From positions 1 through 42,069 of IMG/VR virus record IMGVR_UViG_2541047817_000001: a DNA stretch of 42,069 bases; one strand, given 5' to 3'. Source of the DNA: a virus (lineage: Duplodnaviria; Heunggongvirae; Uroviricota; Caudoviricetes). A program made the position numbers and the translations under genes. Positions 2,623 to 7,413 of the stretch are shown here, piece after piece. Numbering within the stretch: position 1 is the stretch's first letter; each line of letters begins with the position of its first letter. Below the pieces are notes generated by a model, which saw nothing but the letters and a program-made list of their open reading frames with translations, made no database searches and had not been told where the DNA came from.

Positions 2623-2849
2623 TTTCTTTCCTCTGTTATGCCATCACCCGCGCTCACCTGGACAGTATGCAGCGGAGACTGAAGAGCCGCAATGCAGGCT
2701 TGTCGTGTTGTGAGGTAAGGAGATTTATTCTTAGTGGGATCTTTGCGTGTTGCCTGAAGACGCCCTGTGCGTATCCAGTTAATGGCAGTCGGTCTGGATA
2801 TCTTGAGAAAATGACAGGCCTCATCGAGTGTGAGGCTGTATGGCTCCAT
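2499..2849 (-). CDS. xis: Excisionase (Xis), HTH type (116 aa)
   Basis: Internal ATG at 2847-2849 gives a 116-aa protein [31 protein letters not shown] with an AlpA/Xis-type helix-turn-helix. It sits immediately upstream of int and overlaps its 5' end. Start is inferred from TAATG overlap with the upstream gene. Confidence 0.6.
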
Positions 2850-3154
2850 TATTTCACCTCTTGCTGTGACATTGTTGAAAAATGGATACCAGCTCGTTGC
2901 TGCCAGACGATCCAACCGAGAGTCATATCCCATGCCATGTATTCGTTATCGCCGTTTTTTGCTCTCCGACGATCTACTAAGTCACCGAAACGCTTTTCCA
3001 TGAATAATTCATAAGCTTCGCGTTCATCTGGTTCTACTTCCAGAGATAGGAGTGCGATTTCATAAGCACGGCGCTCAATATCGTCTCGCACGTCAAGGCT
3101 GCTGATACGCTCTTTAATTTCTTTAATCAGTTCTTTGTCGGTAAAAGTGGTCAT
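2849..3154 (-). CDS. Hypothetical acidic phage protein (101 aa), YfdT-like by size and position
   Basis: ORF-track ORF; start overlaps the upstream gene stop (ATGA). Same length and position as yfdT in the K-12 CPS-53 block (assignment from memory). Confidence 0.55.
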   Translation of the reverse strand: MTTFTDKELIKEIKERISSLDVRDDIERRAYEIALLSLEVEPDEREAYELFMEKRFGDLVDRRRAKNGDNEYMAWDMTLGWIVWQQRAGIHFSTMSQQEVK

Positions 3155-4043: not shown

Positions 4044-4170
4044 TTTGTTCTCCACGTATATGCGCTGCACCGCGCTGAATTCTGGCAAAAAGAATCCCTC
4101 ACCATCCGGCGATTATTGAGTAAATTACGTTTCCATAAATGCCCCCGCAGGGGCATTTGCAGTAATGAAA

Positions 4171-4995
4171 TCAGGCGGTGAAAGTACCAATAAAGGTTTC
4201 TACTTTGCTGTCCTTGAATTTCTCAACAAGCAGATCACGAAATTCGTTAGCCATTTCTTCCTGCACCGCCTCCAGCTGAATAATGCGCAGAACCAGTACA
4301 GGACGATCGCCAGTGATAATACTGAGGCGTAATTTAAACGGACGTTCTTTCAGACCTTCAAACGGAACGCATTTAAATTCAAATGCCACTGGCATAATGT
4401 CTTTGGTCTTCGCTTCGACAGACTCCATCAGGGAGCGTTTGCCGCTGAAGTCATTATCTTCAAAATCAGCGGTCTGGTTTGCTTCAATCGTGATTTTACG
4501 GACAGCCGCAGCCGCTTTTGTTGCCTGAATAGCGTCACCATTAGCATCAAAGCCCACAAGATAGTCGGCCCAGTCTTCAATCCATTCTGCTAGTGACTTC
4601 TGGGAGTTACGCTCGCCGTTAACAGACAACAGAGCAGAGAACGGTGCTGTCTTTTTCAGTTTGAGTGTGGCGGTGTTATCTGCGTGACCTGGTTCATCAA
4701 TAGTACCCAGGTTAAGCACACTGACGGCACGCATATTATCAGCATCGATAAAGCAGCGGGTGCCTTCATCTGCAAGATCTTTAGAATAACGGGTAAAGTC
4801 ATCGATGCTGGCAGTGGAAAGCGCACCACGGAAACGGAAGCGATTTAAATTAAATTTTTCCAGATCATGAATGCGGAAATTCTCAGGCAATGCCACAGCA
4901 TCGGCACCAATCTTACTGATAATTTCATTAACACCCTGAGCAGAAATAAGGGCATGGATTTGATTAATTGCGGTTGCGTCTAAGTTCTGAGACAT
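4171..4995 (-). CDS. yfdQ: DUF2303-family phage protein (YfdQ-like, 274 aa)
   Basis: 274-aa ORF in the position and of the size of yfdQ in the CPS-53 early block. Family assignment is from memory. Confidence 0.7.
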
Positions 4996-5060: not shown

Positions 5061-5423
5061 TTAACGACCTGCTGCGCGGAGTTTTCCGTCAGGTTCACCG
5101 GCAAGAGTCAGTAACTGTCCCTGGTCTTCCTGCAGAATAGTCAGGCGACCACCGCGATTGACATACATCGGCGTTTCGGTGGTGTCTTCTTCGGAAATTT
5201 TCCCGCGGTTAGTCGGGCGAACATATGAGAGTTTGTGTTTGATTTTCACTCGGTTCTCATCAAACGGTTCGATTTCCAGGTTGAGCGAGACCTTACCTTT
5301 GGTTTTCGTGTTCATCACACCGGAAGCGACTTCACTGAGAACTGCGCCGATTTTGGTTTCAAATACGCCGCCGTCCAGCTCCCCGATAAATGCCTGCACA
5401 TCAGTACTGCGTTCGCTAGCCAT
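5061..5423 (-). CDS. Hypothetical phage protein (YfdP-like, 120 aa)
   Basis: Start chosen at the ATG at 5421-5423 (MASERSTDVQAFIGEL...), preceded by a strong Shine-Dalgarno GAGGAG. The ORF-track ORF runs further upstream to 5741 but that extension lacks a ribosome-binding site. Confidence 0.6.
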   Translation of the reverse strand: MASERSTDVQAFIGELDGGVFETKIGAVLSEVASGVMNTKTKGKVSLNLEIEPFDENRVKIKHKLSYVRPTNRGKISEEDTTETPMYVNRGGRLTILQEDQGQLLTLAGEPDGKLRAAGR

Positions 5424-5891
5424 TTTGCTGCTCCTCATCATATCGACCCTGCAAGGTCGGTTAGTTTCTCCACAAAACAGAGAAGAACACCTGCGGTGAC
5501 TGCCGCCCGGATGGATTGGGTTATGAGCCCGTCGTCCGGTGATGCTCTTCTCTGTTTTGTAAAAAGGACGGTACCAGCCGGAAGCAAGGGTACAAGCTGG
5601 TACCGCCAAGACTACACACAGCATAAAGTTGTGGTGCCGGGTGCCTCCCGGTGCCTGGCGAAGGTTGCACACCAGGCGGGTGGGTATCCACAGAAGGTCG
5701 ACTGTCAGCCTCAACCTTAACCCGCGTGCGCTGAGCCGCATTCACCACAACGCTAAGGATTCTCTCTGGTTGAAAATACTTAGCTGTTATGTGCCTGCTT
5801 TTAGCCACATCAGGCGAGGTGGACCTAGTTATTCCCCAACAACAAGGATTCGGTTAATCTGGTTATCCCCAACAACGTAAAAGGAAAAGAA
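5424..5891. other. GC-rich, highly structured non-coding region (several hairpins plus tandem direct repeats); candidate structured RNA or regulatory region
   Basis: No ORF with a ribosome-binding site. Perfect 14-bp inverted repeat CAAAACAGAGAAGA (5473-5486) / TCTTCTCTGTTTTG (5546-5559); 9-bp hairpin GGTACCAGC...GCTGGTACC (about 5570-5604); CCGGG...CCCGG and GCCTGG...CCAGGC stems (about 5636-5677); tandem direct repeats GTTAT(T)CCCCAACAAC at 5828-5843 and 5862-5876. Confidence 0.4.
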
Positions 5892-6326
5892 ATGTCCGGT
5901 AATATCTATACGCTGTACAAATCCCACTGTGAAAATGTTGGAAAGTATCGGGGCATTGAAATCAGTGGGGTAGTGTCATCAGTCGAAATAAGCAAAGTTG
6001 AATCAAGGGCAACATTACTTACTCTTTTGGACCTTGTCTTACATGAGCACCGGAAGAAATTCGGCACTCCCTATAATCAGTTGAATGGGAAAAAGGCTCT
6101 GGTTCACCTTATTCTGATGAAGCATCACTGGATGCCAAAACAGATTAATGAGATGAAATTTGATGAACTTCTTCTTTCAATTCAGGATGAACTCACACTT
6201 GATAAAATAAGCGTAACCGCCCAGAAATTTTTAGATTATCGAGACTGGAGATCACAAATTCATCACTTTGATGATTTTGACGAAAATGAATGGGATCCTA
6301 ATTTGTCTGCACAATATCTAAAGTAA
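5892..6326 (+). CDS. AT-rich orphan hypothetical protein (144 aa)
   Basis: ATG at 5892 preceded by AGGA. Visibly AT-rich compared with flanking DNA. No recognisable domain. Transcribed convergently with the first gene of the leftward early operon. Confidence 0.55.
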   Translation: MSGNIYTLYKSHCENVGKYRGIEISGVVSSVEISKVESRATLLTLLDLVLHEHRKKFGTPYNQLNGKKALVHLILMKHHWMPKQINEMKFDELLLSIQDELTLDKISVTAQKFLDYRDWRSQIHHFDDFDENEWDPNLSAQYLK

Positions 6327-6504
6327 CATCCTGTGATAAAACCGTGATTTCCTGATCCAGTTTTTTTAAGGAGTCTATTGTTTCCTGTCGATAAGACAGC
6401 ACTTCACGAAGCTGGTTTATAGCTGCCAGCTTCTTTGTCATCCACTCATAAATTTCCTCATCTGTGTAGCCAGGCGCGACGATTTTGGGTTCTGTTTTGT
6501 GCAT
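6298..6504 (-). CDS. Small hypothetical protein (68 aa), first gene downstream of the putative PL
   Basis: ATG at 6502-6504 (MHKTEPKIVAPGYTDEEIYEW...) preceded by GAGGAG at a 7-nt spacing. The ORF-track ORF extends to 6519 using a TTG. Confidence 0.5.
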   Translation of the reverse strand: MHKTEPKIVAPGYTDEEIYEWMTKKLAAINQLREVLSYRQETIDSLKKLDQEITVLSQDVTLDIVQTN

Positions 6505-6562
6505 TTCACATCTCCTCAAGTTATCAGTTACTTGTTGATGGGGACCAGATTGTTAAAGAGCT

Positions 6563-6590
6563 AAGCGTCCTGTAGGGCGCTTTTTTGTTG
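6563..6590 (+). terminator. Rho-independent terminator-like hairpin
   Basis: AAGCGTCC-TGTA-GGGCGCTT stem-loop followed by TTTTTTGTTG. Confidence 0.4.
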
Positions 6591-6639: not shown

Positions 6640-6738
6640 CGTCCTGCCTGTTCGTTGTTTCGCTTGGGTACATTATGTATCTCAAGGGTACATTGTCAAG
6701 TATAAAAAAACCTGCCGAAGCAGGTTCATAAACATTGA
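6640..6738 (-). promoter_or_regulatory. Putative OL/PL region with repeated GGTACA-type operator motifs
   Basis: GGGTACATT occurs twice (6666-6674 and 6686-6694) and TACATTATGTA is palindromic. The same half-site recurs in the cI-cro intergenic region. Confidence 0.4.
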
Positions 6739-7413
6739 TTAGGCTTTGATTTTGTATCTTCTTGGTTTTCCTGAGAAAATCACTGTACCAATTATAGAGC
6801 AATTACCGTTGATCTTAATGTAAGGCTCAGGCCAGTTTGGGTTTAACGCTTTGAGATAACGCTGTGTCCCATCTTCTATCAACCTTTTGAAGGTGGTTTC
6901 ACCTGTATCGTGCATCAATGCAATAACGTCGTCACCGTGGCAGGCAGGTACTTCAGGATCGACAAAAATCATGTCTCCCGGGCGGTACTCATCAATCATT
7001 GAATCACCTATCACCCGCAAGATATAAGTCATTTCCCCACAGGGTACAGGGCAGGGATACGTTTCTGCTGTGCTCAAATCAACCTCAGAATATCCAACTT
7101 CTTTCCATGCTCCGGCCTGTACCCATGATATGACAGGGACTAATGTGATTTGTTTATTAGTGATTGAAACATCAGGTTTTTTTGTGATGTTCGTTGTCTG
7201 GTGTTCTTGATCGAGCCATCCGACAGGCAGGTCGAAACATTTTTCGATGTGTCGTGCCATGCTGTCACCGATATTTTTAGTAGCACCATCTCCCATAAAC
7301 CTGCTGGTCTGGGTTGGCTCGCGATCAATCATAGTGGCAAAGGAAGAATTCCCGCCAACACCATCTCTCAGTTTTCTGGCGTTAGACCGCCGGATGTCAT
7401 GGATTGTTTTCAT
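6739..7413 (-). CDS. cI: cI-like prophage repressor (LexA/S24 peptidase family, 224 aa)
   Basis: C-terminal S24 autopeptidase signature with the catalytic Ser in VIGDSM and the Lys in TFKRL. Positively charged N-terminal DNA-binding region. Divergent from a Cro-like gene across an operator-rich intergenic region. Confidence 0.85.
   Translation of the reverse strand: MKTIHDIRRSNARKLRDGVGGNSSFATMIDREPTQTSRFMGDGATKNIGDSMARHIEKCFDLPVGWLDQEHQTTNITKKPDVSITNKQITLVPVISWVQAGAWKEVGYSEVDLSTAETYPCPVPCGEMTYILRVIGDSMIDEYRPGDMIFVDPEVPACHGDDVIALMHDTGETTFKRLIEDGTQRYLKALNPNWPEPYIKINGNCSIIGTVIFSGKPRRYKIKA

Follow-up and report, generated by a model that had tools for sequence, protein, structure and literature searches.

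The stretch of DNA analysed here (the window) comprises all 42,069 nucleotides of the IMG/VR record IMGVR_UViG_2541047817_000001, a virus of the Caudoviricetes. The window starts in proA, followed by a thrW-type tRNA at 1369-1441 and then by integrase and excisionase genes on the minus strand, an order that marks it as a lambdoid prophage of the SfV/SfIV/e14 type integrated at thrW. Our subject is a hairpin-dense region of about 470 bp (5424-5891) between a yfdP-like gene (minus strand, 5061..5423) and the gene of a 144-aa protein of the ECs1072 family (plus strand, 5892-6326; NF033230, 157.8 bits), with a GC content of 52-58% versus about 40-45% in its flanks. An initial annotation, made from the sequence alone, had described this region as non-coding and rich in inverted and direct repeats, and had proposed that it could encode a structured small RNA (sRNA), an antitermination or processing element of the PL transcript, or a protein-binding array. 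The region contains a series of conserved RNA modules on the minus strand, and we favor, with moderate confidence, the reading that it is an RNA-rich spacer of the leftward PL operon that encodes an sRNA locus of the DicF type. The features on which the argument draws are given below from high to low coordinates.

6739..7413, minus strand: repressor gene.
6672..6699, minus strand: probable PL promoter, TTGACA-16-CATAAT, from a promoter scan (11 of 12 consensus matches).
5828-5843 and 5862-5876, plus strand: GTTAT(T)CCCCAACAAC twice in direct orientation, within the leader or promoter of the 144-aa gene.
5785..5821, minus strand: conserved block CCACCUCGCCUGAUGUGGCUAAAAGCAGGCACAUAACA, common to otherwise divergent phages in an alignment of phage homologues and cluster representatives.
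5628..5751, minus strand: STnc100-like multi-hairpin domain, from a match to Rfam RF02076, a compensatory closing helix and the predicted fold.
5608..5623, minus strand: single-stranded pairing motif UGCUGUGUGUAGUCUU, from a sequence search and an alignment with RprA.
5561..5607, minus strand: intrinsic (Rho-independent) terminator, whose 13-bp stem (5607..5595 with 5579..5567) encloses a 15-nt loop and is followed by a run of five U (5565..5561).
5467..5565, minus strand: three-way-junction leader, from fold z-score and covariation.
5421..5459, minus strand: small variable hairpin (5459..5444), Shine-Dalgarno sequence GAGGAG (5436..5431) and ATG (5423..5421) of the yfdP-like gene.

Folding both strands of 5424-5891 gave -186.8 kcal/mol for the minus strand (z = -4.9, with none of 100 shuffles as good) and -165.8 kcal/mol for the plus strand (z = -2.8). 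The better minus-strand fold agrees with the other strand indicators, namely an excess of G.U over A.C pairs, the relative stability of the hairpins, U-runs that follow hairpins, and Rfam matches that occur on the minus strand only. The proposal of a structured sRNA, which originally carried no strand, is therefore supported for the minus strand, with relationships to STnc100, DicF and RprA.

The first of the modules resembles STnc100, which is already known from prophages as an sRNA and is a relative of PasD (Zhu, Shabalina and Storz, bioRxiv 2026). An Rfam scan, as suggested by the initial annotation, gave nothing in the region at gathering thresholds, where the thrW tRNA was the only call in the whole window; the matches to the STnc100, RprA and DicF models described here were obtained in E-value mode. 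In this mode the complete STnc100 model (RF02076, positions 1-206 of 206) was aligned by 5781..5558 of the minus strand at 43.4 bits (E 8e-8 locally, 2.8e-6 for the whole window), which does not reach the gathering score of 47 bits. Sub-threshold STnc100 matches at the equal position were found in e14 of K-12, SfIV, ST64B and the Cronobacter phage phiES15. The domain is closed by a helix of GUUGUGGUG (5751..5743) with CACCACAAC (5636..5628), and a hairpin at its 3' end, CCGGG-AGGCA-CCCGG (5651..5637), abuts the 3' strand of this helix; it is one of the shorter GC stems that had been noticed at the outset (CCGGG-N5-CCCGG, 5637-5651). Across relatives the closing helix is kept through the compensatory variants AUUGUGGUG/CACCACAAU and GUUGUGAUGU/GUGUCACAAC and, in the Qin prophage, GUGAUGCGGUG/CACCGCAUCAC. 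The stem of the 3'-proximal hairpin varies likewise (CCGGG, GGUGG, CCUGG) with its pairing kept and its AGGCA loop constant, while the domain interior ranges from 53 to 135 nt among 27 divergent representatives.

The window thus carries the hallmarks of STnc100, these being the closing helix, the conserved CCGGGAGGCACCCGG hairpin and a terminal terminator, and it shares with STnc100/PasD the full-length model alignment, an identical core CACCGGGAGGCACCCGGCACCA, internal hairpins and a prophage location. It differs in the sequence of the unpaired segment before the terminator and in its surroundings. Canonical copies are usually found downstream of stx2, or close to Q, esterase and lysis genes, in the late region of Stx or lambdoid prophages, whereas the domain in the window is in the early-left region between repressor/PL and yfdP. 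The locus is a divergent relative of STnc100 in a different operon from the canonical copies. A tRNA-like nature was also considered for the domain, given its 7-9-bp closing helix, its T-arm-like hairpin and the GGTTCGATTCC hairpins of some relatives, and was rejected when ARAGORN found nothing at these positions in 35 loci. In the loci L005, L007, L012, L025, L049 and L052, the first domain upstream of GUUGUGG contains T-loop-like hairpins (CUGGUUCGAUUCCAG, GUCCGUUCGAUUCGGAC), and ARAGORN calls neither tRNA nor transfer-messenger RNA (tmRNA) there.

Downstream of the domain, a 4-nt linker UUUA (5627..5624) leads into UGCUGUGUGUAGUCUU, which is unpaired in the predicted centroid structures and identical at 16 of 16 positions to nt 62-77 of Escherichia coli RprA, the start of the processed 47-nt RprA. 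This identity was traced by a full-text sequence search, with the RprA sequence taken from PMC5606850 and PMC7311995, and the comparison can be carried to 19 aligned positions with one mismatch (16-19 nt identical, UGCUGUGUGUAGUCUU(.GC)). The 3'-terminal 47 nt of RprA, AAUUGCUGUGUGUAGUCUUUGCCCAUCUCCCACGAUGGGCUUUUUUU, constitute a processed species that retains regulatory activity (PMC9262595). Its layout, the conserved 3' region AAUUGCUGUGUGUAGUCUUUGCCC followed by a terminator, is present in the window, where the motif lies directly 5' of a 10-13-bp hairpin and the U5 run. The remainder of RprA is not represented. The 5' and central region (nt ~30-62), whose partners include the rpoS leader, is absent, local RprA alignments beginning at nt 59-62 with the STnc100-like domain upstream instead, and the RprA model (RF00034; threshold 70 bits) gave no match in 5200-6400 with E values of up to 10 allowed. 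On this model sister loci score 41-47 bits, and some of them are ~90% identical to the whole 47-nt processed RprA. The window element is therefore like RprA in passing directly from motif to terminator, and unlike it in lacking nt 1-58, in its terminator sequence and in its position outside the rprA locus, in a prophage by thrW/proA.

In an alignment of seven phage homologues retrieved with a 468-nt BLAST query, (A)UUGCUGUGUGUAGUCUU is nearly invariant while its flanks diverge or are replaced. When IMG/VR was scanned with a motif-based pattern, at least 120 loci were retrieved. A control scan, anchored on the downstream junction and independent of the motif, returned 165 sites, and 95 of them (58%) carried the motif with at most one mismatch. 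As the remaining sites have other linkers or none, the motif is the commonest of several alternative "seeds" on a common scaffold. Two loci, L009 (a Stx2c phage) and L008 (mEp460), share the terminator, the junction and the yfdP leader with the window (2690-2900, minus strand); their homology ends at window position 5609, beyond which they have a different domain and the short linker AGCCACUGCUUU in place of the RprA-type motif.

The smaller hairpin of the initial annotation, given there as 9 bp, proved to be a perfect 10-bp stem of CGGTACCAGC/GCTGGTACCG (5569-5578 / 5596-5605) that grows to 13 bp with G.U pairs and, with the U-run that follows it, forms the intrinsic terminator. A simple terminator scan missed it because its loop exceeds 8 nt. 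The DicF model (RF00039) matches weakly at this hairpin (19.4 bits, E 0.22 in the window; 28.5 bits in e14), against a gathering score of 48 bits and 76.7 bits for genuine DicF. Across relatives the hairpin after the motif is replaced by other sequences, 57 distinct ones in a first set, nearly all of which fold and are then followed by a T-run; in a larger set of 76 distinct hairpins the sense strand was the more stable in 52. The window consequently shows two features of the class of Hfq-dependent sRNAs, a Rho-independent terminator with a U-tail and a conserved unpaired seed, the latter at 58% of the junction-anchored sites. In long-hairpin lineages (L004, L012, L046, L049, L070, L094, L102 and others), the terminator loop holds GGAGG-N7-(A/G)TGTTC, a Shine-Dalgarno sequence together with a start codon, and the open reading frame (ORF) from such a loop runs through the U-tract and the junction, sometimes in frame with the yfdP-like gene (123-126 aa). 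A small ORF of this kind does not apply to the window, the loop of which has neither a Shine-Dalgarno sequence nor such an insert.

Overlapping the end of the terminator is the three-way junction, which accounts for the large inverted repeat reported initially. The arms of this repeat, 25 nt each and 84% complementary, are at 5472-5496 and 5536-5560; its perfect 14-nt core, slightly shifted from the first description, is at 5472-5485 and 5547-5560 and encloses 61 nt rather than 59. They form the outer helix of the junction, ~25 bp long, with its core at 5560..5472. The large hairpin alone gave z = -8.1, with none of 200 shuffles as good. Covariation across homologous prophages, one of the checks first proposed for this region, bears out a strongly conserved pairing: in 27 distinct sequences 95% of cells are paired and nine pairs are changed on both sides, a result equaled by none of 500 shuffles, and slid controls are 41-51% paired. 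G.U cells outnumber A.C cells by 50 to 15, and pairing is higher in the minus strand (95.0%) than in the plus strand (91.2%), which indicates that the junction is selected in minus-strand RNA. Since the outer helix can cover the U-tract of the terminator (UUUUU with GGAGA), the junction would form only in read-through transcripts.

The two arms of the junction differ in their conservation. Arm 2 is a variable hairpin, and its length does not change in multiples of three. Arm 1 hardly varies, and its apex GGGCUCAUAACCC (5530..5518) matches the anticodon stem-loop of the E. coli initiator tRNA-fMet at 13 of 13 positions, so that the CAU anticodon and all three G-C pairs are present; the sequence of the tRNA itself was checked. 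Among 34 distinct versions of the junction the apex is nearly invariant, with the variants CUCAUUA in ST64B and Klebsiella and UUAAUAA in the defective e14. Further downstream, the small hairpin before the yfdP start is lineage-specific in sequence, and a hairpin is always present.

The same arrangement of modules is found at the dicF locus. The dicB operon of Qin reads, in order, a structured domain, DicF (76.7 bits), an STnc100-like domain and dicB. The ydfC-dicF spacer (L232, 1290-1500) contains GGUUGUGG-closed domains together with GAAAGCGCAC...GUGCGCUUCC, as in relatives from Klebsiella and Salmonella phages, and the dicF-dicB spacer (L232, 1565-1705) is an STnc100-like domain (38.8 bits, E 3e-6) with the closing helix quoted above and a hairpin CCUGG-AGGCA-CCAGG, both of them related to their window counterparts by compensatory changes. 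The element of phiES15 lies directly upstream of kil, just as DicF precedes dicB. The shared layout makes the window locus homologous to dicF in position and structure, though its pairing motif is another. Faubladier and Bouché reportedly treated dicF-like prophage sequences in 1994, and their account may already describe some of these dicF-like relatives.

The likeness extends to the early-left position between structured spacer domains, the GGUUGUGG-closed domains upstream, the adjacent STnc100-like domain, and a short unpaired motif followed by a terminator-type 3' end, the terminator hairpin beginning UUGGCGGUAUCAG in DicF and UUGGCGGUACCAG in the window. The differences are in the pairing motif, which is UUUCUGGUGACGUUU in DicF and UGCUGUGUGUAGUCUU here, and in the downstream neighbor, which is the STnc100-like domain and dicB in Qin and the three-way junction and yfdP in the window. 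Sequence complementary to ftsZ did not turn up in the window, where no dedicated search for it was made. DicF, which Hfq binds, receives its 5' end when RNase E cuts a polycistronic transcript, and its 3' end results either from termination (53 nt) or from RNase III cleavage (72 nt) (PMC5069750). Candidate sites for the same kind of processing are found in the window as an AU-rich linker upstream of the motif and a helix of at least 25 bp downstream.

The probable source of transcription is PL, which closely follows the repressor gene with its terminator and is overlapped by two operator-like 19-nt repeats (6656-6694). Given its position and direction, a leftward transcript would cross the hairpin-dense region on the minus strand. 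The PL sequence of the window also directly precedes RNA domains in the related locus L020, and in the Stx2c phage L009 a promoter TTGACA-17-TACATT starts transcription right at the GUUGUGGUG strand of the domain. Such PL-type promoters, firing directly into the domain in Stx2c-type and Klebsiella-type relatives, support PL as the transcription source. A promoter scan for a sigma-70 promoter of the sRNA itself found none near 5780-5900, and the manual candidates, CTGATG-17-CATAAC, are without the -7 T. The conserved block at 5785..5821 falls within this interval, and in the minimum free energy structure of the whole region its positions 5793..5786 pair with 5751..5743. It could be a 5' RNA motif with a CACA(U)AAC strand, an alternative partner for GUUGUGG, or a plus-strand promoter of the neighboring moron genes.

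Two terminator-like hairpins flank PL. The one at 6708-6727 (minus strand) ends the repressor gene, and the one at 6563-6582 (plus strand) could end transcripts of the 144-aa moron gene after an antisense run through a convergent 68-aa gene. On the right side of their immunity region, related phages carry isrK (64-67 bits; L009, 4873-5061) and C4 antisense RNA (83.6 bits; L004, 5232-5308), both above Rfam thresholds; the window has neither.

By homology with DicF, from which the steps of RNase E cleavage, termination and RNase III cleavage are transferred, the locus may work as follows. Transcription from PL (6699..6672) would run leftward into the STnc100-like domain and then pass the 4-nt linker, the 16-nt unpaired RprA-type motif and the intrinsic terminator, and the majority of transcripts would end there (5561-5565). 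Cleavage by RNase E in the linker UUUA would free an Hfq-type sRNA of ~60 nt, made up of motif, hairpin and U-tail, as the counterpart of processed RprA and of DicF. This sRNA would bind Hfq and pair in trans with those host mRNAs on which the 3' domain of RprA normally acts. Transcripts that read through would fold the three-way junction, the ~25-30-bp helix of which would swallow the U-tract and be a likely site for RNase III, parting the sRNA from the yfdP-yfdQ-yfdR...xis-int mRNA and setting the 5' end of that mRNA. The original proposal of a processing element of the PL transcript is plausible for the junction in this predicted role. The proposal of an antitermination element was not upheld, as there is no resemblance to putL of HK022 and the junction is downstream of the terminator. 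The put RNAs of HK022, which are cis antiterminators just downstream of PL and PR, are comparable in being structured RNAs transcribed early from PL in a phage without an N-like protein; the PL-nun interval of HK022 has no sequence or architectural resemblance to the locus, and the comparison is a remote lead only.

Several observations weigh against a trans-acting sRNA of the DicF type. The fold of the STnc100-like domain exceeds its shuffles only modestly (z = -2.2), covariation inside the STnc100-like subtype is thin, with few divergent sequences of this subtype available, and the STnc100, RprA and DicF models all score below Rfam gathering thresholds. The motif was itself the search key for L010-L129, so its invariance in those loci is circular, and ~40% of the junction-anchored sites carry another short linker, such as AGCCACUGCUUU in Stx2c phages, or none. 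The window offers no target within the phage, since a scan for the complement of the motif within three mismatches found only the motif's own site and no complementary site elsewhere. PL lies ~900 nt upstream, across a convergent moron and with no closer sigma-70 promoter, which makes expression in the lysogen doubtful. The only expression datum that we found is a 35-nt RNA from the K-12 e14 homologue, not from this phage, and it derives from the plus strand, which makes it antisense to the predicted sRNA (PMC4398507). Finally, most of the characterized RprA targets (rpoS, hdeD and narP's translation initiation region) pair with RprA nt ~30-70, and only the last third of this stretch is shared here. 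As this pairing region is mostly absent, the phage RNA should mimic processed RprA and not full RprA. The processed part of RprA, according to work ascribed to Papenfort et al. in 2015, is said to be a second seed domain that is used for ricI and is distinct from the rpoS-activating region.

The same evidence can be read as a purely cis-acting leader, in which an attenuator (a tL-type terminator) and processing or stability structures set the flow from PL and the translation of yfdP through int, without any trans function; we consider this the leading alternative and nonetheless unlikely. The terminator does stand between PL and the recombination and excision genes, and the three-way junction, the best-supported structure of the region, travels with whichever gene follows. 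The junction-bearing sites without the RprA-type motif, and the lineages with a start codon in the terminator loop and an ORF through the leader, also suit a leader function. Such a leader would hardly explain a 16-nt unpaired motif identical to a host sRNA, or the whole 47-nt processed RprA in some members, and the homologous locus makes DicF, for which trans action as an Hfq sRNA is proven. Cis and trans roles can moreover coexist.

The direct repeats raise the question of a DNA-level element, either operator or other binding sites or recombination scars. The repeats are as initially described: TCCCCAACAAC is exact at 5833-5843 and 5866-5876, and one indel extends the copies to 5828-5843 and 5862-5876. 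By our estimate, ~0.03 exact 11-mer repeats within 33 nt would be expected in 468 nt, so that a chance origin is unlikely. A third, inverted copy occurs at 6531-6551 in the leader of the convergent 68-aa gene, so that the motif (AAUCUGGU..CCCCA.CAACA in mRNA sense; 5833-5846, 5856-5875 and 6531-6551) stands 15-45 nt upstream of both start codons of the two-gene moron cassette. Homology with other phages breaks at about 5822, a module junction, and the direct repeats are beyond this break. Copies before both cassette genes indicate that the motif is a shared upstream element of the cassette and not a part of the sRNA. It could equally act in RNA, as an element of the 5' untranslated region or through long-range pairing, and the 6531-6551 copy and the antisense of the direct repeats could pair over about 660 nt in the PL transcript. 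A DNA element leaves 5424-5822 unexplained, where covariation and G.U pairs point to RNA and where the protein-binding array proposed at first finds no support; we regard it as improbable for the region as a whole.

A functional RNA on the plus strand, in the form of an antisense or "anti-sRNA" with AAGACUACACACAGCA that sponges host RprA, the phage sRNA or both, takes its support from the 35-mer. Reported as the most abundant e14 small RNA in K-12 (Ghosal et al. 2015, PMC4398507), the 35-mer has the plus-strand sequence GAAAAAACUGGUACCGCCAAGACUACACACAGCAU, a strand call that we calibrated on the paper's table, in which ChiX, 6S and tmRNA reads are given in RNA sense. It lies at 4156-4190 (plus strand) of the e14 locus L001, homologous to window 5589-5623, and it holds a perfect complement of the RprA-type motif. 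It ends, on the 3' side, at the complement of the nucleotide that corresponds to the processed-RprA 5' end, and this coincident end would fit either a duplex-protected fragment or a plus-strand anti-RprA RNA. The gene lit, which is specific to e14 and lies upstream on the plus strand, could also give rise to the 35-mer by read-through. Prophage-encoded anti-sRNAs do exist in enterohemorrhagic E. coli, AgvB and AsxR being examples that are also cited by Zhu et al. The conserved signals of the region (U-runs, G.U pairs, better fold and Rfam matches) are all on the minus strand, for which reason we keep the plus-strand RNA at a low probability, and the upstream genes in this phage are all on the minus strand, leaving no evident plus-strand promoter.

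Annotation pipelines have also placed ORFs over the RNA locus, namely K-12 ymfH in e14 (103 aa; L001, 4002-4313), SfIV gp34 (226 aa; L003, 3638-4318) and, in the identical DX6 sequence, a "frameshifted hypothetical protein" pseudogene from the Prokaryotic Genome Annotation Pipeline (PGAP; L002, 4015-4325). The yfdP frame itself is open back to 5741 in the window. The frame that is open depends on the lineage: frame 0 in e14 (that of ymfH), frame 2 in the window (in phase with yfdP), frame 1 in ST64B and none in the Klebsiella types. Spacing between conserved anchors varies by 1-2 nt and not by multiples of three, substitutions between e14 and its relatives fall evenly over the codon positions (9/9/12, 10/13/11 and 19/24/21) with no conservation of the ymfH frame, and single-nucleotide indels sit in RNA loops. 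The deletion that opens ymfH in e14 breaks the conserved CCGGG-AGGCA-CCCGG hairpin, and Pfam searches of the flanking small proteins gave nothing. The initial annotation saw no credible ORF and held that an annotated, frameshifted gene across the region would speak against an RNA; such an annotation exists, so the point is formally raised, and it is not credible for want of a conserved frame. That the region encodes a YmfH-like protein, frameshifted here, or an N-terminal YfdP extension as in SfIV gp34 is thus very unlikely, and we treat ymfH, the PGAP pseudogene and the extended gp34 as artefacts.

A DicF-type sRNA locus with an RprA-type motif is consequently the reading that we carry forward, and its distribution is wide. 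With one genome scanned per species, the phage-type element was found in Escherichia, Serratia, Klebsiella, Raoultella, Enterobacter, Buttiauxella, Scandinavium, Superficieibacter, Pseudocitrobacter and Izhakiella; matches in Xenorhabdus and Arsenophonus are the chromosomal rprA, indicating that the 3' part of RprA is highly conserved. Sequence matching the region is present in 2782 of 5426 complete E. coli genomes, which makes the element common and not exotic. STnc100, DicF and RprA are each already known. The RprA-type motif on a prophage scaffold of the DicF/STnc100 type, the place of dicF in a wider modular family, and the junction leader were not found in the searchable literature, and no RprA-type prophage sRNA is reported there, Papenfort et al. 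2015 (PNAS) and Faubladier and Bouché 1994 being outside its reach.

Taken together, the data show that the dicF locus is one member of a much larger modular family, in at least 10 genera, that combines a structured domain and a leader junction with a seed and a terminator that can each be exchanged, and this family offers a natural system for the study of sRNA seed swapping. The mis-annotations flagged by it include the K-12 reference gene ymfH, the pseudogenes called by PGAP and gp34 of SfIV in its extended form. More tentatively, temperate phages of the Enterobacterales may carry a modular sRNA cassette at the dicF position with an exchangeable motif, here a copy of the RprA 3' seed, that injects a mimic of processed RprA, on induction or from the cryptic e14, into the Rcs, RpoS, curli and conjugation network. 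On this tentative view the 3' half of RprA may be phage-derived, and the apex GGGCUCAUAACCC could be a decoy or ligand for VapC-type tRNAfMet nucleases, MetRS, IF3 or the 30S P site. Should the RNA be produced and exert its effect through the motif, a prophage sRNA and a core, stress-responsive sRNA of the host would have a seed in common; phage mimics and sponges are known for other host sRNAs, and we found none reported for RprA. Prophage induction, or the cryptic e14, would then be linked to the traits governed by RprA, including biofilm and curli formation, conjugation and envelope stress.

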